A DNA stretch of 63,077 bases, taken from positions 24,319 through 87,395 of the forward strand of contig CAYSNP010000004.1 of assembly GCA_964432485.1 (NCBI GenBank), given 5' to 3'. Of this stretch, positions 28,212-50,973 are shown piece by piece (the stretch's first letter is position 1; every line of letters starts with the position of its first letter). The translations under genes and the position numbers were made by a program. Below the pieces are notes generated by a model. That model was not told where the DNA came from, did no database searches, and worked only from the letters and a program-made list of their open reading frames with translations. Source of the stretch: an uncultured Christensenellaceae bacterium (GTDB lineage Bacteria > Bacillota > Clostridia > Christensenellales > DTU072).

Positions 28212-30662
28212 ATGAAGATAGTAATTGTTGGCGGTGTTGCCGGCGGGGCTACTGTTGCGGCACGCCTTAGAAGATTAAGCGAAGAGTATGAAATAATAAT
28301 ATTAGAACGAGACTCCTATATATCTTATGCCAATTGCGGACTGCCATATTATATTGGCGATGTGATAACTGATAAGGAAAAACTGGTAGTTCAAACTCCG
28401 CAGGCTATGGGGATGCGTTTTAATTTGGATATACGCACAAAGCACGAAGTGCTTAGCATAGATAAAGCTAATAAAAAGCTGCTTGTAAAGAATCTTGAGA
28501 GTGGAGAGGATTACGAGCAAAGCTATGATAAGCTAATTCTTTCTTGCGGAGCAAAACCGCTTAAGCCGCCAATCAAAGGGCTTGACAGGGCGCAAAATGT
28601 CTTTACTTTGCGCAATATTCCTGATACATTTGCAATAAAAGAGTATATTCAAGCTAATAATGTTAAAAAAGCGGCAGTTATTGGCGGCGGATTTATTGGC
28701 GTAGAAATGGCAGAAAATCTGGCTAAGCTAGGCATAGAGGTCAGCTTAATAGAAAAATTGCCTCAGGTTTTAAGGCAGCTAGACTTCGAAATGGCGCAGT
28801 TTGTGCATGCCGAGCTTTGCGGTAACGGCATAGAATTGATTTTGTCAGACCAAGTTGAGGCTTTTGCCGATAAAGGGCGCACCATAGTGTTAGGAAGCGG
28901 CAGAAAAATAGCTTGCGATATGGCTGTGTTGGCCATTGGGATTGCTCCGGATAATATATTGGCAAAATCAGCAGCTCTCAAGCTGGGCGATTTTGGGCAT
29001 TTGCAAGTGTCGGAGACTTTTAATACTTTTGATAAGGAAAGCGGAGCTAAAGAGGCGGATATATATGCCATTGGCGATATGATAGAGGTAGTCAATCCAC
29101 TGGATAACAGCACTTATGCTGTAAGTCTTGCTTGGGGAGCAAATAGGCAAGGCAGGCTACTTGCCGACCATATTTTTGGCAGTAAAATCAAGGCTAGTAA
29201 GATTTTAGCTACTAATGTAATAAGCGTCTTTGAGCTTACCGCTGCCGGCACAGGAGCTAATGAGGAAACATTAAAAGCAAAAGGCATACCTTACAAGGCT
29301 ATCCATGCGCATCGCTCTAACCATGCCAGCTATTATCCGGGCTCTTTTAATATTTCGCTAAAACTTTTATACGAAGAAAAGACCGGCAGAATATTAGGTG
29401 CGCAAGCAGTAGGCAGGGCAGGTACAGAAAAGCGTATAGATACAATTGCTACGGCAATGCGTTTTGGCGGCACTATTTTTGAGCTAAGCGATTTGGAGTT
29501 TTGCTATGCTCCGCCTTATTCGTCTGCCAAAGACCCCGTCAATATACTAGGCTACATTGGCGAAAATATTGAAGCAGGCGCATACAAGCCTGTTTACCAT
29601 TACCAAATTGATGAAATAGCAAAAAATGGTGGCTATATTTTAGATGTCAGGACTCCGATAGAATATAATAATGGCAAAATTGAGGGCTCTATCAACTTAG
29701 AAGTTGACTCTTTGCGGCAAAATATTGATAAGATTACCTTGTCTAAAGACGCTCCTCTTTATGTAACTTGCCAAGTTGGGCTAAGGGCATATATTGCTAT
29801 AAAAATCTTAAAAGCGCATGGTTTTACCAATCTTTACAACCTTTCGGGCGGGTATTTAACTTATAAAATGTATCATTATCAGCCTATTGTAAATAAAAAG
29901 TTAAGACATATAGAAGTCAATGACTTACAGCAAAAGAAAGAAGTAAAAGAAATAGATGTAACAGGTTTGCAATGCCCGGGTCCGCTAATGGCAACGTATA
30001 AAGCGGTAGAAGCACTTGCCACAGGCGAAAAAGTTCGCATTTTAGCTACTGACACCGGTTTTGCCAATGATATTGAAAATTGGTGTCAAACGAACGGTCA
30101 TATATTAGAAGGGTTAAAGACTGAGGGTGGCAGAATTGTAGCAACTATTGCAAAAGGCGACGAAAGCAGGGGCATATTAGGCGCAATAGATCAAAGGAAT
30201 GCCACAATTGTAGTATTTAGCGGAGCGCTAGATAAGGTGCTGGCTGCTATGATTATAGCGCAAGGCGCGGCGGCTCAAGGCAAAAATGTTACCATGTTCT
30301 TTACCTTTTGGGGACTTAATGCGCTAAGAAGGTCAGAAAAAGTTAAAGTAAAAAAGAGCGCAATGGAAAAAATGTTTGGCACTATGATGCCAAAAGGTGC
30401 GGACAGACTGCCTTTATCTTCTATGAATATGGCAGGCATGGGAGCAAAAATGATAAAAGGCATTATGAAAAAGAAAAATGTGGACTCCTTGCCTCAAATG
30501 ATAAAGCATGCTCAAGCAGCCGGAGTGCGTATGATAGCTTGTACTATGAGCATGGACCTGATGGGTATCAAAAAAGAGGAGCTTATAGACAATATTGACT
30601 ATGCAGGCGTAGCAACTTATATCAGCAAAAATGAAAATGTAGGCACCACTTTATTTATCTAA
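28212..30662 (+). CDS. CoA-disulfide/persulfide reductase fused to rhodanese, TusA/SirA and DsrE-like domains
   Basis: GGVAGG, SYANCGLPY, GGGFIG, YAPPYS; LDVR...CQVGLR (rhodanese); DVTGLQCPGP (TusA); FFTFWGL and ACTMSMDLMG (DsrE2). Confidence 0.9.
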   Translation: MKIVIVGGVAGGATVAARLRRLSEEYEIIILERDSYISYANCGLPYYIGDVITDKEKLVVQTPQAMGMRFNLDIRTKHEVLSIDKANKKLLVKNLESGEDYEQSYDKLILSCGAKPLKPPIKGLDRAQNVFTLRNIPDTFAIKEYIQANNVKKAAVIGGGFIGVEMAENLAKLGIEVSLIEKLPQVLRQLDFEMAQFVHAELCGNGIELILSDQVEAFADKGRTIVLGSGRKIACDMAVLAIGIAPDNILAKSAALKLGDFGHLQVSETFNTFDKESGAKEADIYAIGDMIEVVNPLDNSTYAVSLAWGANRQGRLLADHIFGSKIKASKILATNVISVFELTAAGTGANEETLKAKGIPYKAIHAHRSNHASYYPGSFNISLKLLYEEKTGRILGAQAVGRAGTEKRIDTIATAMRFGGTIFELSDLEFCYAPPYSSAKDPVNILGYIGENIEAGAYKPVYHYQIDEIAKNGGYILDVRTPIEYNNGKIEGSINLEVDSLRQNIDKITLSKDAPLYVTCQVGLRAYIAIKILKAHGFTNLYNLSGGYLTYKMYHYQPIVNKKLRHIEVNDLQQKKEVKEIDVTGLQCPGPLMATYKAVEALATGEKVRILATDTGFANDIENWCQTNGHILEGLKTEGGRIVATIAKGDESRGILGAIDQRNATIVVFSGALDKVLAAMIIAQGAAAQGKNVTMFFTFWGLNALRRSEKVKVKKSAMEKMFGTMMPKGADRLPLSSMNMAGMGAKMIKGIMKKKNVDSLPQMIKHAQAAGVRMIACTMSMDLMGIKKEELIDNIDYAGVATYISKNENVGTTLFI

Positions 30663-30681: not shown

Positions 30682-30713
30682 AACCCTTTGCTAGTTTGGC
30701 AAAGGGTTTTTTT
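30682..30713 (+). terminator. Intrinsic terminator
   Basis: AACCCTTTGC, 7-nt loop, GCAAAGGGTT, then a T-run. Confidence 0.85.
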
Positions 30714-30810: not shown

Positions 30811-33297
30811 ATGAAAAAGATGCTAAAAGAACTATATTTTTTTGGACTACTTATTTTATTTACTTTACTGCTTAGCTTAAATAGCCCATTGTCCATTAAT
30901 GCATATGCTAATAGCGTTGGCATTATTTTGTATTTGGATAACTTTGAAGGGAATATTAGCATCCACGATGAGTTGTACAATAATGATAACGAGTCTTTAT
31001 ATTATATAGAACCTGAAGAAGAGTACAGAGCAGTTTCATCCGATATTTCTGGTTACGAAATTACTTTTTGTATAATGCCTACCAATCCTTTTATAGAATA
31101 TCAAGTTCAAATTGCAGAAGGAGAAATCGAATATTTTGCAGGAAATCAATGTTTTGTATGGATAAAAGATGCACCCTCTTGTAATATTACTCTTGGAGTT
31201 AAACAAGAAGAGGAAGCAGAGCCGCCCGCACCGCTTATGCTGATTGTAGAGTTTGATATAGGCGACGGCACAACTTTAGATGGGGATTTACTAATTCAAG
31301 AAGTGGCAGAAGGCGGCTCTGCTATAGAGCCGGATATTATCCCTCCTGAGGGCTATGATTTTCAGGGCTGGGATACTCCTTTTTCCGATATTTCATCAGA
31401 TATTGCAGTAAATGGAAAGATTACCATAAAAGCTGAATACAAAATATTAAAGTATCAAGTTAATTACTATACGGAAGGCGGGCTTTTTTCCACAATTGAG
31501 CAAGAATATAACTCTCTTTTAAAATTGCCTCTTAATGACCCTATTATGGAAGGGCATTACCTTTTGCATTGGGAAGACGAGAGTCAGATAGCCTACGACG
31601 AAACTTATAGAGTAACTGCAGACCTAGCTTTACATGCTGTCTTTAAGCGCAATCAATATACAATTACCTTTTATGACGGAGAAGCAGAGTTAGGAGAAAA
31701 AGTAGCCCTATTTGGTGATATTATACCCAAAATATTAAATCCGCAAAAGGACGGGTATAGCTTTGAAGGGTGGTATACTGATAAGAGTTTTCAAAACAAA
31801 TTGATTTATACAAGCGATAGCCCCATTGTGGAAGACAATACCGCTATATATGCAAAATTTCAGCTTAATAACATTATAATAACTTATAAGGACAACTTGC
31901 AAGGGGAGTATCAAACGCTTCAAGCCCCCGCTTTTAGCGTGCTGGTACTTGCCCCTGCCCTTACCATTGGCTATAAGATAGCAGTACAAGCAGTAGACTC
32001 CCAAGGAGCAGAATATGCAATAGAAAATATGGAGGTAACTTGCTCCTTTTATAATATAGAAATTACTTACACTTACGAAAAAGATACTTTTTATTTAGCA
32101 TTTGAATGTGCCCTTTTGCCTAGCATTGCTCCCGATACCATAGAAGCCCTTTTTGAGGAAGCAATTAACTTGCCTACTGTAGAAGAATACGGTTACTCCT
32201 TTTTAGGTTATTATCAAGACGAGCATTTTTCATTGCCTGCAGAATATATGACAATGCCTTACTCTGCCAATACGGATAAGACAACTACTCTATATATTAA
32301 GCTGCAAAAAAAGCAATATAATATTACTTTTGACTCTCAAGGCGCTCAAGAGTTTGATACTGTTATAGCAGAGTATATGGACAGCATTGACTTAGACGAA
32401 TACCGTCCAAATAGAGAAAATATGCTATTTTTAGGCTGGTTGGATTCTTTCGGGCAACTGCAAGAGCCTTTTAGCGGCACTTTTTTAGTAGAAAGAGATA
32501 CCCTTTTTACTGCAGTCTTTCAAATGATTAAAGAAAACTTTAATATTAGTTTTGTACTGCCAAGTTCCCTTACCTTTGATTTGCTTGACGGGCAGGAATA
32601 TGTTATTCCTGTAATATGCCCTGACACAATTACAATTAAGTATAAAGAAACGCCGGACATTCTTCCCGACCCGCAAGCGGAAGGACATATCTTTTTGGGC
32701 TGGTTTACAGATAGGGAGTGTGCCCAAAGCTATACTCCTTTGCCTATTGCTGATGACATTATCCTTTACGGATTATTCGAAACAGTTACGCTTACAGCAA
32801 CTTTTTGGTGCCGCAATCAAAAAATTGTCAAGAATGTAGAATATTACTCTCCTATGCCCACGCTGAACCCTTTAGAGGTGATAAGCGAATACTATACTTT
32901 TACAGGTTGGGATAAAACTGTTGACTATATCACCGAGGATATTGAATTTATTGCCCTTTATACCCCTTTATATAATATTGTTGTGCTTGATAAGGCCAAT
33001 CAAATGATAATAAGACCGCACGATTGCAAGCTGGATGCCTTTTTATCCTCTTTGGATTTAGCTCTTGAAGAAGACGAAGTTTTTTTGGGCTGGAAGCTGG
33101 AAGTTTATGACCAAGACACAAATACTTTTGCCTATGTGCCCAATATAGTTAAGACAACTCAATCGGGCATTATAGACGAAAAAGATTTAATGCTACTTTG
33201 CTCCCTTATAGCTAACTTATTATTGCTTGTATCCCTTATGCTAATCATTATTTCTTTTAAGGTCAAGGCAAAGACATTAAAATTGAAAAAGTTTTAA
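30811..33297 (+). CDS. Acidic surface protein with ~8-9 InlB-B (Listeria/Bacteroides)-type repeats and a C-terminal membrane anchor
   Basis: Signal peptide; recurring Y.ITF...P..EGY.F.GW..D...LYAKF units; hydrophobic C-terminus followed by a Lys-rich tail. Confidence 0.8.
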   Translation: MKKMLKELYFFGLLILFTLLLSLNSPLSINAYANSVGIILYLDNFEGNISIHDELYNNDNESLYYIEPEEEYRAVSSDISGYEITFCIMPTNPFIEYQVQIAEGEIEYFAGNQCFVWIKDAPSCNITLGVKQEEEAEPPAPLMLIVEFDIGDGTTLDGDLLIQEVAEGGSAIEPDIIPPEGYDFQGWDTPFSDISSDIAVNGKITIKAEYKILKYQVNYYTEGGLFSTIEQEYNSLLKLPLNDPIMEGHYLLHWEDESQIAYDETYRVTADLALHAVFKRNQYTITFYDGEAELGEKVALFGDIIPKILNPQKDGYSFEGWYTDKSFQNKLIYTSDSPIVEDNTAIYAKFQLNNIIITYKDNLQGEYQTLQAPAFSVLVLAPALTIGYKIAVQAVDSQGAEYAIENMEVTCSFYNIEITYTYEKDTFYLAFECALLPSIAPDTIEALFEEAINLPTVEEYGYSFLGYYQDEHFSLPAEYMTMPYSANTDKTTTLYIKLQKKQYNITFDSQGAQEFDTVIAEYMDSIDLDEYRPNRENMLFLGWLDSFGQLQEPFSGTFLVERDTLFTAVFQMIKENFNISFVLPSSLTFDLLDGQEYVIPVICPDTITIKYKETPDILPDPQAEGHIFLGWFTDRECAQSYTPLPIADDIILYGLFETVTLTATFWCRNQKIVKNVEYYSPMPTLNPLEVISEYYTFTGWDKTVDYITEDIEFIALYTPLYNIVVLDKANQMIIRPHDCKLDAFLSSLDLALEEDEVFLGWKLEVYDQDTNTFAYVPNIVKTTQSGIIDEKDLMLLCSLIANLLLLVSLMLIIISFKVKAKTLKLKKF

Positions 33298-33317: not shown

Positions 33318-33346
33318 TTGATAATACAATAATCTTATTGTATAAT
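33318..33346 (+). promoter_or_regulatory. sigma-A promoter
   Basis: TTGATA, 17 nt, TATAAT with extended TG. Confidence 0.7.
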
Positions 33347-33360
33347 ATTTTGGGGTAGCT

Positions 33361-35058
33361 ATGAATAAGTTTGTTGAATTTTATAAAGGCAATAAAAGGG
33401 TAGCATTGTTTGCTACTGTCCTTGCAGTATCGATATCACTAATTTTGCTGTTTTTCGGGCTGTCAATGCTTGCTTTTATATCCGCTGTTTTGCTTGTACT
33501 ACTTGCGGCAGCGATGCTGGTAAGCATAGCGGTAAAAGATAAGCTGGCCCTTTTTTTACTTGCGCCTTTTGTAGCCATTATCATAGGGCTTTTGATAGCA
33601 AATATCTTTTGGGGGGCGGAAAGTTTTGCTAAAAGGCTTTTTTATAACTTAGCCTTTTTAATTGTACCCATTGCAGGCGTCTACATTTTGTTTAACAATC
33701 AACGATTCCCTAAAATAGCAAGTAAAAAATTTACAGCTTTAATTACCCTTTCCGCAGTAAGCGTTGCATGCATAACCTATGTGTTTATGTTGCCGCTTAG
33801 GTATAAACCAAATGTAGCTCCAATGACCAAAGGATACAGCGCATATTTTGCTTCAGAAAAGCAAGCCAAACCCAATGCCCCTAATGTACTGCTTATCAAT
33901 ACTGATATTGATATAGACTCTTTGCCTTGTTACGGCGGCAATAATGAAACACCTAATATTTGCGCGTTAGCAGAAGATGGAATGGTATTTTTGAATTACT
34001 TTTCTCAAACTAACAAAGAGTTTGCCTTGCTTACGGGCAGATATCCGGAGCGTGGCGGGCTAAACAATGCGATATACCCTACCAAAACTTCGGCTTTATC
34101 CCGATATAACAATGCTTTTCTCTCCTCAAACAATGTCAATGGCATTTTAGGAGACGAAATATCTCTCCCCGCAATATTACAGGCAGGGGGTTATAGCTGT
34201 GGGTGCTTTGGGATATGGAATTTGGGCGATTATGGACAATACTTGCCTACCAAGCATGGATTTGACAATTTTTATGGCAGTTATTTTGCCGGCAGCTCCT
34301 TTGCAATAGTAAATGAAAAAGAGGGAAAAGCAGAACTTATAAGCCGCTCAAAAGATATAGACAGCATAACTATAAAGGCACAAGAGTATATATCACAAAA
34401 GGCCGACACTAAGTTTTTTATAGAATATTCTATGCCCTTGCAGCCTTTTGCAGGCAAAAACAGCGTATCTGCTCAAGATATCCTTGCTTTTGATAAGCAA
34501 GTGGGCGCACTTATAGATACGCTTAAAACAAAAGACCTATACGATACAACTTTAATAATACTTTCCGGCGGTACGCAAGATAGCTTTGGCAGGGCGCCTT
34601 TTATTGTTACATATATTAATGGCAATCTTAACTCAGGCAATTATGCAGGCAGAGAGCTAACCGCTCCTATTGCAACAATAGATGTTTATCCTACTGTACT
34701 TAATTTTGCCGGTCTTACCAAACCTAGCGATAGGGAGATAGATGGGGTTGACCTTTACAATTTATTAAAAGCCTTTATTTATGGAGATAGCAAACTACAT
34801 AGTGCACTTTACTTTTTTAAGGGAGGCAAGCCTGTGGCAATATTAAAGAGAGAAAGCATAGACAGCAAGAATTATGATTTTCTTTACTACACTAAAGCTG
34901 CTAGTAGCAGTCGCACAGAAGCCTTGTTCAATCTTACTTTAGACCGACAGGAAAAAGAAAACCTAGCTACGCAAGAGCAAAATATAGCCCAATCTTTAAG
35001 TGATAACCTTAAAGATTATGCCCGCACCTTTTCAAAAAATAAACGAGGTGCGGCATAA
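33361..35058 (+). CDS. Membrane-anchored sulfatase-fold protein lacking the catalytic C/SxPxR motif
   Basis: About 4 N-terminal TM helices; PNVLLI, CYG..NETPNI.AL..DG..F, ALLTGRYP, LPTKHGFDNFYG, IDVYPT, IDGVDL, LFNL..D..E..NLA. Confidence 0.8.
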   Translation: MNKFVEFYKGNKRVALFATVLAVSISLILLFFGLSMLAFISAVLLVLLAAAMLVSIAVKDKLALFLLAPFVAIIIGLLIANIFWGAESFAKRLFYNLAFLIVPIAGVYILFNNQRFPKIASKKFTALITLSAVSVACITYVFMLPLRYKPNVAPMTKGYSAYFASEKQAKPNAPNVLLINTDIDIDSLPCYGGNNETPNICALAEDGMVFLNYFSQTNKEFALLTGRYPERGGLNNAIYPTKTSALSRYNNAFLSSNNVNGILGDEISLPAILQAGGYSCGCFGIWNLGDYGQYLPTKHGFDNFYGSYFAGSSFAIVNEKEGKAELISRSKDIDSITIKAQEYISQKADTKFFIEYSMPLQPFAGKNSVSAQDILAFDKQVGALIDTLKTKDLYDTTLIILSGGTQDSFGRAPFIVTYINGNLNSGNYAGRELTAPIATIDVYPTVLNFAGLTKPSDREIDGVDLYNLLKAFIYGDSKLHSALYFFKGGKPVAILKRESIDSKNYDFLYYTKAASSSRTEALFNLTLDRQEKENLATQEQNIAQSLSDNLKDYARTFSKNKRGAA

Positions 35059-35134: not shown

Positions 35135-37486
35135 ATGTTAAAATTAAAGGATATTAAAAAGAATTACTATGTAACGGGGCAAACTATACCTGCTTTGCAA
35201 GGGATAAGCCTGGAGTTTGGCACCAACGAATTTGTATGCATATTAGGTCCTTCCGGATGCGGCAAAACTACGCTAATGAATATTATTGGCGGGCTTGACC
35301 AGGCCACCGGCGGAGAGATATGCTACAACGATATTTCTACCAAGAAGTTTAAGGATATAGATTGGGACAATTACCGTAATAAAAAGATAGGTTTTGTTTT
35401 TCAAAGTTATAATTTGATACCGCACGCCAGCATACTTGCCAATGTTGCCCTTGCGCTTACTCTTTCCGGAGCAACGCCTGCGGAGCGGCATGCAAGGGCA
35501 AAGGAAGTGCTTGACAGAGTTGGACTTTCTACAGAATATAATAAGAAGCCTAATCAGCTTTCAGGCGGACAAATGCAAAGGGTGGCAATAGCAAGAGCTA
35601 TTATCAATTCGCCCGAAGTGCTGCTTTTGGATGAACCAACGGGCGCTTTGGATACCCAAACCAGCATACAGATACTTGATTTGATAAAAGAGATAGGCAA
35701 AGATAAGTTGGTAATAATGGTCACTCACAACTCCGAGCTTGCTCAAATGTATGGTACCAGGGTAATACATATGCGGGACGGTCTGATTCTTAGCGATTCC
35801 AATCCTTATTATGAAAAAGTAAAGATAGTATCTTCCGCTGCTCCAAGAGCTCAACGCAGTTCCATTTTCAAAAGGGATAAAACCAGTATGTCTTTTATTA
35901 CAGCTTTAGGGTTATCTTTAACCAATTTGCTAACTAAAAAAGGCAGAACAATTATGACTTCTGTAGCAGGCTCTATCGGCATTATCGGGATTGCGCTTAT
36001 TCTTTCACTTTCCAATGGGATGAATCTTTTTATTAGCAAAATGCAAACGGATACTCTTGCGGGATATCCTATTACTATTACCACTACCGCTATAGATGTG
36101 GCACAAGCTATGAAAATGATGCGTCAACAAAGCAATTCTACAGTAGAATATGAAAAATTCCCTATTGTGCGCAAGGTGTTTGCGGAAAAAAGCATTAACA
36201 TTATGGATATAATCTCCAGAAATGATATTACCAGAGAATATATAAATTACATAGAAACCAATTTAGATAAAGCTACTTATAACGATATAACTTATAAAAC
36301 AGGCTTAAACTTAAATGCATTTGGCATTAAGGCAGGGCGCAGCAATTATTCCAAAATCAATATAAGCGGCGATTCTATAGTTTCTAATCCATTGAGCAGC
36401 GGCGCAACTTGGCAAATGCTACTATCCGAAGATTTCTTATCAACTCAATATGATGTGCTTGCGGGTTCAATGCCTAGCAGCAAAGAGGATATTGTGCTTA
36501 TAATCAATGAAAGCAACCACTTGTTTAATCAGGCTTTAGATGCACTTTTTTTAAGAGAGAACCGCAATGTAGACGCAATTGATTTTGATGAGATAATAGA
36601 TAAGAAGTATAAGATTTTTACCAATGATGAGCTTTATAAAAAGGTAGGAAACAAATATACAGAGAGAGCAGAATCCGAACTGGATTATGATGCTGCTTTA
36701 ACTGTAAGGATTTCGGGGATACTGCGTATTAAAAAGGGGATTGAGACAGGTGCGCTAATACAAGGTATTGGCTATACAAAAGGGCTATACAATTGGCTAC
36801 AGACAGAAAATATGAACTCAGAAATTATCGAATGGATGAAAGAAGAAGGCAATGAGAAAAAGAGCCCGCTTACCGGCAATAATACGGAAAACAGAGATAG
36901 TATTTTCAGAGCTTTAGGCGGTAACGATATACCTGACGAAATTAATATATATCCCGTAGATTTTGCCTCAAAAGAGGTAATTAAGCGTACTCTTGACGCC
37001 TACAATACAACCTCAAGCAACAAGATTATGTATATAGATATGTCTGAAATTATGGGCGAAATGCTTAAAACTTTTATTAATATAATTAGCTGGGTGCTTA
37101 TTGCGTTTACAGCTATTTCGCTGATTGTATCAAGTATAATGATAAGCATAATTACCTATGTATCAGTACTGGAGCGCACTAAAGAAATAGGTATCCTTAG
37201 AGCAATAGGCGCGCGTAAGATAGATATCAGCAGGGTATTTAATGCAGAAACTTTTATTATAGGGCTAATATCAGGTATGGTGGGCGTTGTTATTGCCTTG
37301 CTTTTAACTGTTCCTATCAATATGCTGACCCGCACTTACTTAGAAGTGGATAAACTGGCTGTGTTAGGGTTGCTCTCCGGTGCTATCCTTATACTTATAA
37401 GCATAGGGCTTACTGTGCTTTCAGGGCTTATCCCTGCCAGAAAAGCGGCTAAAAAAGACCCTGTCTTGGCTTTGCGCACAGAGTAA
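35135..37486 (+). CDS. ABC transporter ATP-binding/permease fusion (MacB/FtsX-type)
   Basis: GPSGCGKT, LSGGQMQR, LLLDEP, VTH, ERTKEIGILRAIGA, PARKAAKKDP. Confidence 0.93.
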   Translation: MLKLKDIKKNYYVTGQTIPALQGISLEFGTNEFVCILGPSGCGKTTLMNIIGGLDQATGGEICYNDISTKKFKDIDWDNYRNKKIGFVFQSYNLIPHASILANVALALTLSGATPAERHARAKEVLDRVGLSTEYNKKPNQLSGGQMQRVAIARAIINSPEVLLLDEPTGALDTQTSIQILDLIKEIGKDKLVIMVTHNSELAQMYGTRVIHMRDGLILSDSNPYYEKVKIVSSAAPRAQRSSIFKRDKTSMSFITALGLSLTNLLTKKGRTIMTSVAGSIGIIGIALILSLSNGMNLFISKMQTDTLAGYPITITTTAIDVAQAMKMMRQQSNSTVEYEKFPIVRKVFAEKSINIMDIISRNDITREYINYIETNLDKATYNDITYKTGLNLNAFGIKAGRSNYSKINISGDSIVSNPLSSGATWQMLLSEDFLSTQYDVLAGSMPSSKEDIVLIINESNHLFNQALDALFLRENRNVDAIDFDEIIDKKYKIFTNDELYKKVGNKYTERAESELDYDAALTVRISGILRIKKGIETGALIQGIGYTKGLYNWLQTENMNSEIIEWMKEEGNEKKSPLTGNNTENRDSIFRALGGNDIPDEINIYPVDFASKEVIKRTLDAYNTTSSNKIMYIDMSEIMGEMLKTFINIISWVLIAFTAISLIVSSIMISIITYVSVLERTKEIGILRAIGARKIDISRVFNAETFIIGLISGMVGVVIALLLTVPINMLTRTYLEVDKLAVLGLLSGAILILISIGLTVLSGLIPARKAAKKDPVLALRTE

Positions 37487-37581: not shown

Positions 37582-37610
37582 TTGACAAAGTTGTTAATAA
37601 ATATTATAAT
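37582..37610 (+). promoter_or_regulatory. Consensus sigma-A promoter
   Basis: TTGACA, 17 nt, TATAAT. Confidence 0.85.
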
Positions 37611-37647
37611 TCAAGTGTAACACTTGCAAAAAAAAAGGAGGCCGAAA

Positions 37648-39441
37648 ATGAAAAATAAAAAGATATTAATTTTAGTTTTATTATTAACATTACTGCTAGT
37701 TTTTAGCTTAGGAGGCTGTAGCTTTCTGGCAAGACTTTTTGGTAGGGACAATGGCACAGATGATGAGCCATCTCCTACAGACCAACCTTTAACTGAACAA
37801 GAAATATTGAATTTAACAAGCAACCCTATTGATACATCATCCAGCTTTACGCTATATATTGTCATTGACACAATGGGCGTATCGGGTATGACGCAAATAG
37901 ATTGCCAAGTAGTAGATGGTATCCCTAATCTCCGAATAGAGAAAGAAAACGATGATGCAACAGGTACAGAGGAGACTTATATATTAAAGCTAGCCGGAGA
38001 GTATGGCTTTCAACAAATAGAGGTAAGCAGATCTTATGTCGGCGAAACTACTACTAAAGTAAAAAGGTTGTCCGAAATACAAGCGCAAATGAAAATGAAC
38101 AGCTTAATTCTTGATACAGTTCCCTTTTTACATGAATATATTCCTGAGATTAAGAAGTTAGGATTGCTGGCAAAATCTTATGATAGCTCTTTGGGCAACT
38201 TAGAGATGTCAGGCGTGCGTCATATCAATGCCCAAAACCAACTTGAATCTATAGAAATCAATGCAAGCTCAAAGATAGTGCTAGATTTTGTTAACAGAGC
38301 GGGTGCATTTAGCTACTATAATAAATTCAACTCTCAAACTAAATTGACTGAGGCTAAAGTACAATTCATATTGGATAAGGAGTATCTGCCTACCAATTAT
38401 GATTACGAAACAACCAGCAAAAAAGATATTCTTTCTGCTAATGTTTCAATAGAATATGGCAATGTTAGCATACAAACTCCAAATCTTGACAATGCTATTA
38501 ACCTTGATGCTTCTGAAATTCAAATTCAATTGGTTGATAATTATGGCGTTACTCTTGACGGACTTTACCAAGAAAGTTTTATAACAGGGTCAGAGATAGG
38601 GGCAGGCGATGTTAATATGTCAGCGCAAACTGTTGAAATGCAGTTTCAAGGTATTTATTATGATTCGGATTATAAATACCCTATCGGCAACACTATAAAT
38701 ACCGGATTTACTACCCCGCTAAGATTATATTGTAATTGGAAAGGAACAAAAGTTAATTTACAACTAAATGGCGGTGTTCTTGAAGAAGAACAAGAGTATT
38801 TTATACTTGGTAAGTATACGGATCTTGAGCCTATCAGATCGGGATATGAGTTTGGCGGCTGGTATAAAGACCAAAACTATACAGAAAAATTAGAGAGTTG
38901 GGATGCAACGCTAACAGATACCGCAATTACCCTTTATGCAAAATGGACTCCCTATGTAAAAATTACCCTTAATGCAGGAGTAAGCTATAAGCTTCTACCA
39001 ATTATCGGTGTAGCCGGCAAGCCAATTGCTTATCCTGTCGGAGATGCTATTAATAAAAAAGGGCATTTATTTGATGATTGGTGGCAAGATGCGGCTCTTA
39101 CTCAAGTTAAACTTGCAGCCTTCCCTGCTGCTTCTACAACGGCATATGCCTCTTTTAAGGAAGCCTGGGTAGTTACTTTATCTCAGCATGCCGATTATAA
39201 GCTGGATCACTTGCCCAAATATGTTAATATAGCAAAGAATCCTGCCAATCCTGCAACTGCTTTTAATGCACTTATTCAAAAAATAACGGAAGGTAATAAT
39301 GCTATTACTTTTGGCGGCGAGGGCGGAGGCTATATTTTTGATAAATGGTATCTTGATAGTGCTTTCACTACTCCTTTTACTGAATATCCTACCGGTAATA
39401 TTACTTTATATGCAGGCTTCAAAACAGCACAGCCAATCTAA
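37648..39441 (+). CDS. Lipoprotein with C-terminal InlB-B-type repeats (paralog A)
   Basis: SD AAGGAGG; lipobox LGGC; PIRSGYEFGGWYKD...ITLYAKW; collinear with 39560-41314. Confidence 0.8.
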   Translation: MKNKKILILVLLLTLLLVFSLGGCSFLARLFGRDNGTDDEPSPTDQPLTEQEILNLTSNPIDTSSSFTLYIVIDTMGVSGMTQIDCQVVDGIPNLRIEKENDDATGTEETYILKLAGEYGFQQIEVSRSYVGETTTKVKRLSEIQAQMKMNSLILDTVPFLHEYIPEIKKLGLLAKSYDSSLGNLEMSGVRHINAQNQLESIEINASSKIVLDFVNRAGAFSYYNKFNSQTKLTEAKVQFILDKEYLPTNYDYETTSKKDILSANVSIEYGNVSIQTPNLDNAINLDASEIQIQLVDNYGVTLDGLYQESFITGSEIGAGDVNMSAQTVEMQFQGIYYDSDYKYPIGNTINTGFTTPLRLYCNWKGTKVNLQLNGGVLEEEQEYFILGKYTDLEPIRSGYEFGGWYKDQNYTEKLESWDATLTDTAITLYAKWTPYVKITLNAGVSYKLLPIIGVAGKPIAYPVGDAINKKGHLFDDWWQDAALTQVKLAAFPAASTTAYASFKEAWVVTLSQHADYKLDHLPKYVNIAKNPANPATAFNALIQKITEGNNAITFGGEGGGYIFDKWYLDSAFTTPFTEYPTGNITLYAGFKTAQPI

Positions 39442-39453
39442 AAACTAAACTTG

Positions 39454-39486
39454 AGCCCCGCTTAAGTGCGGGGCTTGCTTTTCTTT
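39454..39486 (+). terminator. Intrinsic terminator
   Basis: AGCCCCGC, 6-nt loop, GCGGGGCT, then a T-rich tail. Confidence 0.8.
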
Positions 39487-39487
39487 A

Positions 39488-39516
39488 TTGACAAACGGGT
39501 AAGAATGCCTTACAAT
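39488..39516 (+). promoter_or_regulatory. sigma-A promoter
   Basis: TTGACA, 17 nt, TACAAT. Confidence 0.8.
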
Positions 39517-39559: not shown

Positions 39560-41314
39560 ATGAAAAGTAAAAAATTGTTAACGCTAACTTTATTGCTGCT
39601 ACTAATATCTGTATTGACTCTTTCTGCATGCGGCAAACGGCCTGATGGTCCTACGCCAACACCTGATGACCCGCCTGTGTTACAACATCCTCTTAGCGAA
39701 CAAGAAATAGCTGCCTTATTTACAAAGCTAGTGGATACCAGCTCAAGTTTTACCCTAAACAAGACATACTACTCAGGCGGAAGTGACAGCGGGGTAGAGC
39801 TAAAGTATAGTGCGGGGACAAGCCCTAAGGCATATGTTGCTGACAGATATGAGCAACAAGTAAGCGAATATTATTTGGGTAAAAAGGGAGATACTTATTA
39901 TTACTTTGGAATTGAGGATTCAGATGTAGGATATCAAAAACTTACTGATATTCAATTTCAGTTATTAATAAATGATTTACTTGAAGAGTATACTATTGAC
40001 TCAGATTTTTTTGTAATGTTAAACCAAGATAGTATAATAGCTAAAAGTATTGACGAATCTCTTGGCATTGTTAGTTTAGCAGGCACACGCTTTGTTAATG
40101 AGCAACAGGAATTAGAGCGCATAGAAATTACTGCTTTTTGCAAAAACGCATATGGTTATTTTGCAGAAGCTGTCAACTATTCTTTTGAATTTGATAATCA
40201 AGAGCGACTTAATAAGATAACGTATGATAGCCAAATAGATGCTGAGTATCTGCCTACAAGCTTATCTTTAGACATGCAAGAAGAATACAATAGCAGCAGA
40301 ACAATCACAATTGAGTATGGCGAGGTAGAGATTACATTGCCCGGACTTGCTGACGGAGAAGATATAAGTGCGTCTACTGTATCATTATACTTAGTTGATA
40401 GTTACGGAGTAGAGTTATCAGAATATAGTTTTGACGCAGACACAGAAATAACTATTGCAGACTATCTATCCGTACCTGAAGCTGTTGAGCCATTTTTTGA
40501 AGGGCTGTATTATGACTACCAGTACCAGCATCCTGTAAGCAATACTTTAGAATTAGGTTGCTTCCAACACTATGAACTTTATTGCAAATGGAATATTCCA
40601 AAGGTAACATTAGAGCCTAACGGAGGACAGCTTTTATTTTCTCAAACGCTATATTCGCTAAATGATTGTTATTATTACGACCCCGTACGAACAGGTTATG
40701 CGTTTGCAGGATGGCATGCGGACTCCGAGTTGACCCAAGAAATTGACGAGGACAATTACGACCTTATAGTTGCGCCTATTACGCTTTATGCAAAGTGGCA
40801 GCCATATGTAAAGGTGGTATTTAACGCTGACTTAGGCTATAAAGTGCTACCCAAAATAGGATTAGAAGGCGAAGAAATTTATTACCCTGATACCTATATA
40901 GCTAAAAAAGAATATATCTTTAGAGGCTGGTATTCAGACGAAGAAACGGCTATCCCTGCGCCTATGCAATTCCCTGCCAGCTCTATTACGGTTTACGCTC
41001 AGTTTGAACATGCTTGGTGTATTACTTTTGTGCAAGACCCTAAGTTTAATATTAAATATTCTACCAAATATATTAATGTAGAAAAACTGGCAGAGCCTAC
41101 GCAAGACGATTTTGAGGGAGTATATACATCAATTACTTACCATTTTTATCTTGTAGACGGAGATGGAGAGCGAAGAGTCTTTGACGCTGGCGGCGGCAAG
41201 CGCTATATTTTTGACGACTGGTATACAGACCCATCTTATTTACACAAGTTTTCCGAATACCCCGATGCAAACATGGTGCTATACGCTAAGTTTGATATTT
41301 ATAATCCTGATTAA
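39560..41314 (+). CDS. Lipoprotein with C-terminal InlB-B-type repeats (paralog B)
   Basis: Lipobox LSAC; Pro-rich linker; DTSSSFTL, EYLPT, LVDSYGV, PVRTGYAFAGW, ITLYAKW match paralog A. Confidence 0.8.
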   Translation: MKSKKLLTLTLLLLLISVLTLSACGKRPDGPTPTPDDPPVLQHPLSEQEIAALFTKLVDTSSSFTLNKTYYSGGSDSGVELKYSAGTSPKAYVADRYEQQVSEYYLGKKGDTYYYFGIEDSDVGYQKLTDIQFQLLINDLLEEYTIDSDFFVMLNQDSIIAKSIDESLGIVSLAGTRFVNEQQELERIEITAFCKNAYGYFAEAVNYSFEFDNQERLNKITYDSQIDAEYLPTSLSLDMQEEYNSSRTITIEYGEVEITLPGLADGEDISASTVSLYLVDSYGVELSEYSFDADTEITIADYLSVPEAVEPFFEGLYYDYQYQHPVSNTLELGCFQHYELYCKWNIPKVTLEPNGGQLLFSQTLYSLNDCYYYDPVRTGYAFAGWHADSELTQEIDEDNYDLIVAPITLYAKWQPYVKVVFNADLGYKVLPKIGLEGEEIYYPDTYIAKKEYIFRGWYSDEETAIPAPMQFPASSITVYAQFEHAWCITFVQDPKFNIKYSTKYINVEKLAEPTQDDFEGVYTSITYHFYLVDGDGERRVFDAGGGKRYIFDDWYTDPSYLHKFSEYPDANMVLYAKFDIYNPD

Positions 41315-41344: not shown

Positions 41345-41382
41345 AAAGGCGCAAGCGAGACCCTCGCTTGCGCCTTTTTTTT
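41345..41382. terminator. Bidirectional intrinsic terminator
   Basis: AAAGGCGCAAGCGAG, ACC loop, CTCGCTTGCGCCTTT (15-bp perfect stem), T-run; between convergent genes. Confidence 0.9.
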
Positions 41383-48288: not shown

Positions 48289-48864
48289 TTATAAATCTTT
48301 TCTATCTCTTAACGCTTTTTGCAAGGTTATCTCATCAGTATATTCAATTTCGCTGCCCATAGGAATACCATGCGCTATCCTGCTGACTTTAATTCCCAGC
48401 GGCTTGATTAAACCTGCAAGATAGGCAGAAGTCATTTCGCCGGAAATATCTGCATCCAGCGCAATAATTATCTCCTTTACCCCGTCCAGTCTGCTCAAGA
48501 GCTCCTTTAGCCTTATATCGTCTACGCTAACACCTTTTTGAAAATCTATTGTCCCGTGTAAACAATGGTATACCCCTTTATATTCGCCCATTTTTTCTAA
48601 GGCTATAATATCTCGAGGTGCTTTTACCACGCAAATTGTAGACTTGTCACGGTTAATGCATATTTCACAAAGGCTGTCCTCAGTATAATTGCCGCAAACC
48701 TTACATAGCCTAATATTATTCTTAACATCCAGCAAGGCTTTAGCAAAGGCCTCAACCCTATCTGCATCCGTTTCAATTATGCTGTAAGCATAGCGCATAG
48801 CGCTTTTATGACCTACTCCCGGCAGCCGCTTAAAGCATGCCGCAAGAGCTTCTAAGCTATCCAT
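48289..48864 (-). CDS. recR: Recombination mediator RecR
   Basis: LPGVG, Zn finger CKVCG...CEIC, GVYHCLHG, RIAHGIPMGSEIEYTD..TL..AL. Confidence 0.93.
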   Translation of the reverse strand: MDSLEALAACFKRLPGVGHKSAMRYAYSIIETDADRVEAFAKALLDVKNNIRLCKVCGNYTEDSLCEICINRDKSTICVVKAPRDIIALEKMGEYKGVYHCLHGTIDFQKGVSVDDIRLKELLSRLDGVKEIIIALDADISGEMTSAYLAGLIKPLGIKVSRIAHGIPMGSEIEYTDEITLQKALRDRKDL

Positions 48865-48870
48865 TTTCAA

Positions 48871-49272: not shown

Positions 49273-50973
49273 TTAGTATCTTTTTTTATTTTTAATATGC
49301 AGCTCGTTAGGAAAGAGCTCCTTGAGCTTGCCCATTAGCTCTTTACCGTTTTCATAAATAGTTTGTCCTTTTTCCACGCATTCAAATTGCAAATCCGCTA
49401 TTTCTTTTAGCGCGGTATTAAGAATGCTTATATTTGCCTTTTCAGATAAGTATAGGTATCGTGCTCTGTTATCAGTCCTAATAATCAGTTTGCCCGCTTC
49501 GATTATTACATCGTCCTCATTTGCAAGCGCCATCCTTAGCGCACCCATTGGGTCATCTTTTGCAAGCTTGACCACCAGAGCGGCAAGCATATCTCTGGCT
49601 TTGCCCGCCCCTAGCGGCTCATTGGAAAATAGGGCTTTTGCCGCCTTATCGTCTAACGCTGTTTCAGTAAGCAAATCCAGACTTGCTATATTTTCTTGTA
49701 CATTTTCTTGTGCTTTTTCTTTTTTATAAGTTTCTGCAATATTGGGCTTTTGGGTATCCGAACCTTTATCTTTGGTAGTCACGATAGGGGTTTTATCCTC
49801 TTGCAAAGAAGGACTTACTACTTTGCCTTTAAGCATTTTTTCTATTGCAGCAATACGGTTTGCTATTGCATAAGCATCAAAGGCGCTGCCCAGCTCACTG
49901 GCTTGTATCAGTGCCGCTTCTAAAAGGATTTGCGGCTGAAGCGAATACCTAAGGTCGCCTTCCAGTCCGCCTATTATATCCATTGCTCTGCCTATGCGCA
50001 GGTTATCGTGCAACGCACCAAGAGCTTTCATATTTGCAGCTTCTTGCACGGAGGCATAGCCGCCAAGATTATAGTCAGGGATATTTTTAGCCCTCATTAG
50101 CTGACTAAAGTATTCTGCCAGGTCTTTAGCAAGATTAATTGCGCTAACCCCTTTTCTATTGCATTCATCTGCCAGCCTAAGTACTACCCCTGTATTGCTT
50201 TCCAGTATTGCTGCGGCAAAAGTGTGCAACACATTTTTTTCCGTAGAGCCCAGCAGAAATAGCAGCTCTTGATACGAAATGCCTTTGCCGCCATAGCTTG
50301 CCGCCATATCCGCAATGCTAAGCGCATCACGCACGCTTCCTTCACCGTGCATTGCAATTAAATCTATCCCTTTTTCCTCACAAACAAAGCCAATTTCACT
50401 ATAAATGTCTTTAATAAGAGAGGCTATTTTATCTTTGGCAATAAGGCGAAAGTCAAAACGCATACAGCGTGAAAGTATTGTGGCAGGCAGTTTTTGCACT
50501 TCTGTTGTAGCAAGTACAAAGATAATATGCTCGGGAGGCTCTTCCAAAGTTTTCAAAAAAGCGTTAAAAGCGGAAGGCGAAAGCATATGCACTTCATCAA
50601 TTATATATACTTTGTATTTACCTATTGAGGGCTTAAATTTAACGCTATCGTTTAATTCTCTTATTTCGTCCACACCGTTATTGCTTGCCGCATCAATTTC
50701 AATTACATCAAGATTGTCCGCACTTTGCATAGCCTTGCAAATATAGCAAGTGCCGCAAGGCGAACCTTTTTGAGGATTCTCACAATTTACTGCCCTGGCA
50801 AAGATTTTTGCTACACTGGTCTTGCCCGTGCCCCGTACACCGGTAAATAAATAGGCGTGGCTTATCTTACCTGACGCAATTTGATTAGTTAGCGTCTTAA
50901 TAATATGGTCTTGGCCAATGACTTTGTCAAAATTGTCAGGGCGAAAACGCCTATATAAAGATACATAGCTCAT
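49273..50973 (-). CDS. dnaX: DNA polymerase III subunit gamma/tau
   Basis: LYRRFRP, GVRGTGKT, EIDAASN, IIDEVHML, FLKTLEEPP, TILSRC. Confidence 0.97.
   Translation of the reverse strand: MSYVSLYRRFRPDNFDKVIGQDHIIKTLTNQIASGKISHAYLFTGVRGTGKTSVAKIFARAVNCENPQKGSPCGTCYICKAMQSADNLDVIEIDAASNNGVDEIRELNDSVKFKPSIGKYKVYIIDEVHMLSPSAFNAFLKTLEEPPEHIIFVLATTEVQKLPATILSRCMRFDFRLIAKDKIASLIKDIYSEIGFVCEEKGIDLIAMHGEGSVRDALSIADMAASYGGKGISYQELLFLLGSTEKNVLHTFAAAILESNTGVVLRLADECNRKGVSAINLAKDLAEYFSQLMRAKNIPDYNLGGYASVQEAANMKALGALHDNLRIGRAMDIIGGLEGDLRYSLQPQILLEAALIQASELGSAFDAYAIANRIAAIEKMLKGKVVSPSLQEDKTPIVTTKDKGSDTQKPNIAETYKKEKAQENVQENIASLDLLTETALDDKAAKALFSNEPLGAGKARDMLAALVVKLAKDDPMGALRMALANEDDVIIEAGKLIIRTDNRARYLYLSEKANISILNTALKEIADLQFECVEKGQTIYENGKELMGKLKELFPNELHIKNKKRY

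Follow-up and report, generated by a model that had tools for sequence, protein, structure and literature searches.

The 63,077-nucleotide stretch of DNA analysed here (the window; contig CAYSNP010000004.1 of an uncultured Christensenellaceae bacterium) carries at 33361-35058 of its forward strand a gene for a 565-residue protein, P0001, in which a five-transmembrane (5-TM) anchor is followed by a sulfatase-like domain that lacks nine of the ten canonical catalytic and sulfate-binding positions. This is the sole long frame at these coordinates, and its features, assigned from Pfam, AlphaFold2 (AF2), Foldseek and alignments of the protein family described below, are as follows.

33361..35058, + strand: whole open reading frame (ORF) of P0001, 565 aa, 5-TM anchor plus a predicted non-catalytic ectodomain of S1-sulfatase fold
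33361..33810, + strand: N-terminal membrane domain, aa 1-150, five helices, predicted N-in/C-out (AF2 helices, Lys/Arg distribution)
33610..33636, + strand: outward-facing loop WGAESFAKR between TM3 and TM4 (family alignments)
33877..35058, + strand: extracytoplasmic sulfatase-fold domain, aa 173-565 (Pfam, AF2, Foldseek)
33898..33921, + strand: former metal-binding DD segment, now NTDIDIDS, aa 180-187 (family alignments)
34003..34023, + strand: former formylglycine motif, now SQTNKEF (alignments)
34210..34227, + strand: GIWNLG, aa 284-289, where relatives have GKW(N/H)LG (alignments)
34432..34446, + strand: MPLQP, where relatives have TPWPH(Y/F)P, catalytic His deleted (alignments)
34564..34590, + strand: SGGTQDSFG, aa 402-410, scar of a large deletion (alignments)
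35035..35049, + strand: C-terminal KNKRG, the family-wide (K/R)xNRRG tail motif, kept (family alignments)

Fold, membrane topology and active site of P0001

Profile searches assign residues 175-354 of P0001 to the Pfam Sulfatase family PF00884 at 56.8 bits against a cut-off of 25 (E 2.8e-15) and give a weak SGSH_C match over residues 411-552; the NCBIfam arylsulfatase and choline-sulfatase models also match, both far below threshold. The best phmmer match in the PDB is human GALNS (4FDI, E 1.7e-21), all matches are S1 sulfatases or related choline-sulfatase/phosphonate-monoester-hydrolase chains, and no LtaS, EptA or MCR chain is found among the 64 PDB sequence matches at E<=1. A full-length AF2 model built from a 46-sequence alignment (pLDDT 85.7, pTM 0.86) shows five long N-terminal helices (12-32, 35-59, 64-84, 89-111 and 122-143) followed by the alpha/beta sulfatase fold. 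In a Foldseek search of the PDB with this model the top 50 structures are all S1 formylglycine sulfatases (E 3e-22 to 4e-18, best 2.9e-22), with LtaS, EptA and MCR chains absent from those 50, and the longest alignments, of 535-543 columns, are to human steroid sulfatase.

P0001 thus shares the two-subdomain alpha/beta fold of the S1 formylglycine sulfatases (SulfAtlas S1; GALNS 4FDI, arylsulfatase A 1AUK, steroid sulfatase 1P49, carrageenan sulfatase PsS1_19B 6PSM) and keeps their motifs TPNI, LLTGRY, LGDYG..LPT..GFD.FYG, D.YPT and DGV.L. A sequence-only reading of this DNA had recognised the arylsulfatase scaffold in the strings TPNICALAEDGMVF (197-210), ALLTGRYP (222-229), LPTKHGFDNFYG (295-306), IDVYPT (440-445) and LFNLTLDRQEKE (522-533), all of which are present in the translation, and both the profile alignment and the structural comparison that it proposed bear the assignment out. 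Unlike active S1 sulfatases, P0001 has no C/S-x-P-x-R motif, only one metal ligand and no maturase in its genome, and its 150-residue 5-TM domain has no counterpart in the characterised S1 enzymes.

The same reading had taken the protein to be membrane-anchored, which agrees with the five helices of the model and with the distribution of basic residues, since Lys and Arg cluster at the N-terminus and within loops 59-63 and 112-123. By the positive-inside rule this pattern predicts an N-in/C-out topology, with the sulfatase-like domain extracellular. The five-helix module is specific to the family and has no Pfam match. We modelled it separately (residues 1-172, pLDDT 79.6) to look for homology to the membrane domains of YejM, EptA and LtaS, and a Foldseek search of the PDB with this model returned nothing at E<1, those TM domains included.

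The losses were mapped by aligning P0001 to 59 intact full-length family members, all of which keep LMDD, S-x-P-V-C-(S/T)-P-S-R, GKW(N/H)LG, PWPH, SDNG and RGRK; we take the aligned positions to be those numbered D29, D30, K123 and His229 in arylsulfatase A. Four sequences are without intact catalytic motifs, namely P0001, P0002 (73% identical to it) and the near-identical pair P0003 and L014 (52-54%), and these four, which represent three lineages and are called the pseudo clade below, have their gaps in common. In the DD segment NT(D)-IDID stands against the LMDDMAYSD of active members, a clade-wide deletion of one residue or four depending on the alignment, with D29 replaced by T181 in P0001 (Cys in P0003) and D30 kept as D182. 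The formylglycine motif reads SQ----TNKEF against SxPVCSPSRF: the nucleophilic Cys falls inside the 4-residue deletion, Pro has become N218 and Arg has become E220, and the same Asn and Glu occupy these positions in all three lineages. GKWNLG has become G(I/V/E)W(N/G/R)LG, with I285 in place of K123 in P0001 and Val or Glu in its orthologues; the His of the usual GKWHLG is N, G or R in the pseudo lineages, a position that we regard as uninformative because most active family members already have Asn there. TPWPHYP is reduced to MPLQ--P. Finally, GGTQDSFG stands for SDNGPG...RGRKNTTFDGG, a deletion of ~25-30 residues that took SDNG, with its Asp/Asn metal ligands, and most of the stretch to RGRK, and the second catalytic Lys is T405 in P0001 (T/T/A across the three lineages).

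In total ~35 residues are deleted from the active-site loops. One of four metal ligands and neither of the two Lys residues are left, the testable catalytic His229 is absent, and D182 is the sole survivor of the ten canonical positions. The altered strings cited in the sequence-only reading (NYFSQTNKEF, 212-221; GIWNLG, 284-289; NTDIDIDS, 180-187; SGGTQDSFG, 402-410) are all found in the translation, and its claim that every catalytic residue is lost holds against the 59 intact members for CxPxR, Lys, PH and SDNG but fails for D182. Without a nucleophile, a maturase, a metal site or the sulfate-binding Lys/His/Lys/Arg set, P0001 should, on the evidence of these alignments, be incapable of formylglycine chemistry.

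Active members share 150 columns with a conservation of 90% or more. All three pseudo sequences keep 71 of these, 66 lying in the ectodomain; they are mostly core Gly, Pro, Tyr, Asn and Asp together with the LLTGRY, LGDYG..LPT..GFD.FYG and DR.IDGV motifs. The remaining 79 are changed or deleted, including every catalytic position bar D182. Many ectodomain positions are newly fixed within the pseudo clade, which has 118 invariant residues specific to it. The old active-site positions partly vary among the three lineages (I/V/E, N/G/R, Q/S/G), and a new catalytic centre is therefore unlikely.

Parent family, maturase and selection

P0001 descends from a family of membrane-anchored sulfatases. 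A database search yielded ~38 full-length homologues (540-735 aa) with the same N-terminal membrane domain, from metagenome-assembled genomes of Clostridia/Christensenellales, and a search of 81 genomes of the same taxonomic family added 28 more. P0001 has the family's five-helix module with its WGAESF(G/A)K loop and its C-terminal NRRG tail. It aligns over its full length, at 28-36% identity, with active 5-TM sulfatases such as P0004 (NCBI 'sulfatase-like hydrolase/transferase [Clostridia bacterium]'), with which it shares the membrane module, the loop, an NVDGILGDEI insert and the tail, and the pseudo clade nests within this group. Within the loop G85 and A86 are at least 90% conserved family-wide, the other positions given being the commonest residues (E87 and S88 at ~46-49%), and the pseudo clade retains the loop complete. 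The active relatives have the full catalytic set and a maturase gene directly downstream, neither of which the pseudo clade has. CxPxR is kept only in relatives at <=36% identity to P0001, so that close orthologues with an intact motif, which would have marked the loss as recent, were not found. An exhaustive profile-free search of 1.84 billion representative proteins gave 13 clusters at E<=1e-30, of which only that of P0003 is dead. A literature search, incomplete in its coverage, found no description of a polytopic, anSME-linked 5-TM sulfatase family.

An active-form 5-TM sulfatase occurs in 32 of 79 family genomes outside the window's genus (34 of 81 when the two pseudo-form genomes are included). 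In 19 of 20 fetched loci of active members a 351-380-residue radical-SAM/SPASM gene, anSME-like, lies directly downstream, and when these 20 loci were compared with the gene set of the window the maturase was the sole constant neighbour. At P0001 a MacB-like gene is found in that place. An anSME-like match at E<=1e-60 was obtained in all 32 active-form family genomes vs neither of the two pseudo-form genomes; in the window's genome no radical-SAM protein exceeds 104 bits with the anSME model TIGR03942, whose cut-off is 349, and the FGE domain PF03781 has no match in either genome of the window's genus. As these two genomes are 97% (the window's) and 93% complete, absence of a maturase is probable rather than certain. 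No second sulfatase above the Pfam cut-off was found in the window's genome at its 97% completeness, and the pseudo-sulfatase gene is therefore the lineage's only descendant of the family and not a spare duplicate.

The pseudo lineages have a single origin. In a maximum-likelihood tree the membrane-anchored family stands apart from soluble sulfatases (SH-aLRT 100), and within it the three pseudo sequences group together (SH-aLRT 100); the stem of this clade measures 1.13 substitutions per site and its internal branches 0.14-0.53. The clade is one of three basal branches of the family, its exact sister group being uncertain because of the long stem. The reading frame is intact, with no stop or frameshift, in independent assemblies of all three lineages (the window; two metagenome contigs from ENA; and G031, a GTDB genome encoding almost the same protein as one of those contigs), although the proteins of the lineages have diverged by 27-48% and synonymous divergence (dS) is saturated in every comparison with P0003.

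The ratio of nonsynonymous to synonymous divergence (dN/dS, omega) comes, for that reason, from the comparison of P0001 with P0002 by NG86, which gave dN 0.193, dS 1.41 and omega 0.137. By region, omega is 0.115 in the N-terminal and 0.122 in the C-terminal half of the ectodomain and 0.19 in the membrane domain; constraint on the dead ectodomain is no weaker than on the membrane anchor. Ten pairs of active members at like divergence were compared, and the seven with unsaturated dS gave omega values of 0.05-0.134. Because the frames are intact at saturated dS and omega is ~0.14, we conclude that the gene is not decaying. The question raised in the sequence-only reading, whether orthologues share the losses under purifying selection, is thus answered in the affirmative by the relatives at 73% and 52-54% identity.

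Several further observations concern the parent family and its maturase. In the family as sampled here (P0004-P0038 and L015-L042; for example the sulfatase at L003:8001-9881 and the maturase at L003:9932-11002) an anSME-like radical-SAM gene nearly always comes next. Most members have GKWNLG, with Asn for the usual catalytic His, and one subclade has GKWHLG together with a 25-residue insert in the outer loop. It is conceivable that the substrate of the active enzymes is membrane-associated, lipophilic and sulfated, because steroid sulfatase gives the longest fold alignments with the model; the conserved membrane module is a further hint of a membrane-associated sulfated substrate. In one member, P0010 (648 aa), the formylglycine motif reads SSPVSSPSR, with Ser where the family otherwise has Cys, and a more distant sulfatase, P0075 (537 aa), has Gly at that position (PSPEGTPSR) with its other motifs intact and may, from its sequence, be a further sulfatase that is dead or unusual. 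Beyond P0001, the window's genome gives a single PF00884-like signal (G000:C8:44274-44516, sub-threshold at 22 bits, model positions 205-300, in a 416-aa frame), which probably belongs to another protein of the alkaline-phosphatase superfamily and not to a sulfatase. In the related genus g16 the 5-TM sulfatase is missing from four genomes whose anSME-like gene is interrupted by a single in-frame TAA or TAG, at the following positions.

G061:C76:988-2022: stop-bearing anSME-like gene, genus g16
G062:C1:14783-15802: stop-bearing anSME-like gene, genus g16
G063:C88:10161-11189: stop-bearing anSME-like gene, genus g16
G065:C73:4888-5910: stop-bearing anSME-like gene, genus g16

They appear to be maturase genes in decay now that the sulfatase they served is gone; in six other sulfatase-less genomes of g16 the anSME-like copy is still intact.

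Gene neighbourhood and the MacB-like ABC protein

The pseudo-sulfatase gene lies in a co-oriented run of genes for putative surface proteins, of which the following features are relevant here.

30811..33297, + strand: gene upstream, for an 828-aa surface protein that bears Listeria-Bacteroides (Flg_new) repeats and ends in a helix (Pfam, synteny)
33318..33346, + strand: promoter-like TTGATA-17-TATAAT (11/12), 15 nt before the ATG of the pseudo-sulfatase gene (consensus scan only)
35135..37486, + strand: gene downstream, for a 783-aa MacB-like fusion of ABC ATPase and FtsX permease whose extracytoplasmic domain is large (Pfam, NCBIfam)
37624-39441 and 39560-41314, + strand: two Flg_new-repeat lipoprotein genes
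37582-37610, 39452-39477, 39488-39516 and 41345-41377: promoter-like and terminator-like elements of the two lipoprotein genes

The upstream repeat-protein gene, separated from the pseudo-sulfatase gene by 63 nt, is syntenic in all three pseudo lineages. The downstream product, which the sequence-only reading had called MacB-like, has ABC_tran and FtsX domains and matches the NCBIfam MacB model at E 8.9e-77; its gene is co-oriented with the pseudo-sulfatase gene across a 76-nt gap, is syntenic with it in the genus and, as noted above, takes the place of the anSME gene of active relatives. The sister species (L001/L055, 52% identity) has the same gene order of repeat protein, pseudo-sulfatase, MacB-like protein and repeat lipoprotein, in which one Flg_new lipoprotein orthologue follows the ABC gene, and so has the 73% relative as far as its short contig (L002) reaches. 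No terminator-like hairpin was scored between the upstream repeat-protein gene, the pseudo-sulfatase gene and the ABC gene. The ABC gene may nevertheless have its own promoter, because the region between it and the pseudo-sulfatase gene contains a TATAAT and a weak hairpin.

Outside the genus the association dissolves. At ten loci of other genera, BLAST showed neither a sulfatase-like nor an Flg_new gene beside the orthologues of the MacB-like protein (49-57% identity), and the ten flanking genes annotated with Pfam belong to unrelated families (RimK-like, ABC-F, metallophosphatase, methylase and others). On these grounds we rejected the MacB-like protein as an ancestral partner. The retention of the ABC neighbour by orthologues, a point that the sequence-only reading proposed to check, thus holds within the genus and breaks down elsewhere; as the ten loci are unlinked, the association is genus-specific and carries modest functional weight.

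Beside these genes we note some further features of the locus and of its paralogues. The two Flg_new lipoprotein genes have promoter-like sites of 12/12 and 11/12 and a GC-rich terminator-like hairpin after each, and may for this reason be transcribed apart from the pseudo-sulfatase and ABC genes. Fused MacB-like ABC/FtsX paralogues abound in this genome and in related ones, with as many as 11 matches in one genome; the window's genome has a second MacB-like tandem pair on another contig (G000:C2:19867-23175, 48% and 54% identity), and the orthologue of the window copy is usually alone among unrelated genes. Cell-envelope glycan genes lie close to the pseudo-sulfatase cluster. In g16 (L071, L074, L078-L081) the active sulfatase-maturase pair is found 3-5 kb from orthologues (41-62% identity) of the window genes 48289-48870 and 49273-50973, which lie ~14 kb downstream of the pseudo-sulfatase gene; this proximity may be a remnant of a shared chromosomal position and is a weak hint. 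Just upstream of the surface cluster, the gene at 28212-30662 encodes an 816-aa fusion with motifs of pyridine-nucleotide disulfide reductase, rhodanese, TusA-like and DsrE-like proteins; it ends in a strong bidirectional terminator at 30682-30708 and appears unrelated to the pseudo-sulfatase.

Role of the retained protein

With the homology to S1 sulfatases, the losses and their single origin, the absence of a maturase, the intact ORFs and the low dN/dS in hand, we consider it highly probable that P0001 is a non-catalytic pseudo-sulfatase retained by selection. It is a pseudoenzyme in the operational sense, an enzyme homologue without catalytic residues that is under purifying selection in several lineages. 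The ancestor would have been a formylglycine sulfatase of the Cys type, polytopic and facing outward, and a radical-SAM (anSME-like) enzyme encoded directly downstream would have matured it in the cytoplasm. The nine canonical positions would have been lost in one episode, on the stem branch of a single genus and mostly by short deletions, and the maturase gene would have gone from the genome in the same lineage. What remained, namely the membrane module, the alpha/beta core, the C-terminal subdomain and the NRRG tail, would have stayed under purifying selection about as strong as that in active relatives. The present role would be that of a surface-exposed binding or scaffold module held at the membrane, its likeliest setting being the co-oriented surface cluster of repeat surface protein, pseudo-sulfatase, MacB-like mechanotransmission ABC protein and repeat lipoproteins, and binding of sulfate in the old pocket would not be expected. 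The conserved scaffold, the outer loop, the NVDGILGDEI insert and the NRRG tail appear to fit a structural or protein-binding role, which two known systems, taken as analogies, make plausible.

Pseudoenzymes as such are well documented, and one famous example that is anchored in the membrane comes from the alkaline-phosphatase superfamily. PbgA/YejM (LapC) of Enterobacteria combines five TM helices with an outward-facing sulfatase-superfamily domain and serves mainly in regulation or binding, in lipopolysaccharide (LPS) sensing and control of LapB-FtsH, rather than in substrate turnover (PMC6921655, PMC7240159). P0001 is like it in architecture, with five TM helices and an outer domain of the alkaline-phosphatase/sulfatase superfamily, but YejM comes from the Thr-type LtaS/EptA branch whereas P0001 comes from the S1 sulfatases, and the two TM modules have no detectable similarity; we treat the resemblance as analogy because the host is Clostridia-type and without LPS regulators. 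The other system is EnvC, a LytM protein without catalytic activity with which the MacB-fold FtsEX is partnered on the extracytoplasmic side (PMC7668044). In EnvC-FtsEX, as in PcsB-, CwlO- and RipC-FtsEX, a type VII ABC protein has an extracytoplasmic partner, and here a dead enzyme is encoded beside a MacB-like gene; EnvC, however, is a soluble LytM/coiled-coil protein whose contact with FtsX is experimental, whereas for P0001 the link is genus-level synteny. LtaS, EptA and MCR-1 also have a 5-TM N-terminus and an outward PF00884-type domain, but P0001, unlike them, has no conserved Thr and no metal site, and its ectodomain is closest to S1 sulfatases.

A number of observations weigh against the retention of P0001 as a binding or scaffold module of the surface cluster. 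The variable old active-site positions yield no binding-site signature; dS is near saturation (1.4), which makes omega approximate; and the clade consists of three lineages only, from one genus of uncultured bacteria. The link to the cluster is one of adjacency within that genus, and promoter-like sites precede several of the cluster genes, so that co-transcription is uncertain.

A narrower version of the same explanation would make the pseudo-sulfatase the dedicated extracytoplasmic partner of the adjacent type VII ABC protein, with ATP-driven movements of the FtsX-type permease acting on it, or being gated by it, as FtsEX acts on the dead LytM protein EnvC. The two genes are adjacent and co-oriented, with the 76-nt gap free of any scored terminator-like hairpin, their order is conserved down to lineages at 52% identity, the ABC gene sits exactly at the maturase position of active relatives, and MacB/FtsX-type proteins are known to act through extracytoplasmic partners that include a pseudoenzyme (PMC7668044). 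Set against this are the confinement of the linkage to one genus, the ten unlinked orthologous loci, the many MacB-like paralogues in the family and the intergenic TATAAT and weak hairpin that could mark a separate ABC promoter, and on balance we find such a partnership doubtful. The fuller proposal, that a dead S1 module works with a MacB/FtsX-type ABC protein and repeat surface (lipo)proteins as a Gram-positive counterpart of EnvC-FtsEX or YejM-LapB, seems to us unlikely. Were it true, this would to our knowledge be the first S1 pseudo-sulfatase in bacteria to have its non-enzymatic role defined. The repurposing suggested by the sequence-only reading accordingly stands as far as a retained pseudo-sulfatase is concerned; for the new functions that it proposed, the evidence is gene adjacency.

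Selection might instead act on the five-helix membrane module, for example on binding of a lipid or membrane partner, with the dead ectodomain kept as a folded cap for stability or insertion. G85 and A86 of the outer loop are conserved in the family and the loop is whole in the pseudo clade, the TM region is slightly better conserved than the ectodomain across the deepest pseudo split (59% vs 54% identity), and in PbgA/YejM the TM domain is essential and the sulfatase-like periplasmic domain dispensable (PMC6921655). Between P0001 and P0002, though, omega is lower in the ectodomain (0.115-0.122) than in the TM domain (0.19); most of the 71 surviving columns are ectodomain columns and many ectodomain positions are newly fixed; and the module resembles neither the YejM, EptA and LtaS TM domains nor other PDB entries. 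We regard this explanation as improbable, and about equally so the idea that the ectodomain is a lectin-like receptor which still recognises a glycan or lipid moiety of the ancestral sulfated substrate and no longer hydrolyses it. Retention of the fold and surface location, the surface repeat-protein neighbours with cell-envelope glycan genes close by, and the long alignments to steroid sulfatase, a membrane-embedded enzyme of lipophilic sulfates, speak for such a receptor. The residues that would hold the sulfate (two Lys, His, the metal site and Arg) have been removed, however, the Arg position is a conserved Glu beside Asp182, and ~35 residues have gone from the active-site loops, so that the old pocket has become shorter and lost its basic character; canonical sulfate binding is unlikely. 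For the same reasons the binding of sulfated or phospho-glycans in the old pocket, which the sequence-only reading had put forward, is not to be expected. That P0001 is still an enzyme with another nucleophile or metal site, of the Thr/Ser type of LtaS, EptA/MCR-1 or phosphonate monoester hydrolases, is very improbable: although the alkaline-phosphatase superfamily has switched nucleophiles often, T217, the sole Thr/Ser candidate, is close to the former Cys position in two lineages out of three and D182 is kept, T217 is Glu in P0003/L014, the Asp/Asn (or Asp/His) metal ligands are deleted with the loop that carried them, the old active-site positions differ between lineages, and the 64 PDB sequence matches and top 50 fold matches include no LtaS, EptA or MCR. 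With T217 not conserved and the ligand loop deleted, we are reasonably confident in excluding a Thr-type mechanism. That the gene was inactivated recently and is being lost, or is an assembly artefact, is scarcely credible. The catalytic residues and maturase are gone and the genome is small (1.9 Mb), in a lineage with ongoing gene loss, but identical deletions recur in independent assemblies, and the ORFs remain free of stops and frameshifts at low omega across 27-48% protein divergence and saturated dS; we reject both possibilities on these grounds.

A pseudo-sulfatase retained by selection has consequences for how such genes are read. A literature search, incomplete in its coverage, found no report of a dead S1 sulfatase kept by selection. 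Sulfatase genes in gut metagenomes are routinely counted as capacity for degrading mucin and glycosaminoglycans, and the pseudo clade would be an annotation trap in such counts: it passes the Pfam sulfatase threshold with its active site, as aligned here, wholly lost, and is, to judge from selection, still functional. It is at the same time an experiment performed by nature. Because the loss occurred once, coincided with loss of the maturase and left the protein under selection, it represents a clean conversion of an enzyme into a non-enzyme, and one from the formylglycine branch of the alkaline-phosphatase superfamily, as opposed to the Thr-type branch that gave YejM. The analysis also brings to light the parent family itself, the polytopic, outward-facing, anSME-dependent sulfatases of Christensenellales-like gut bacteria.

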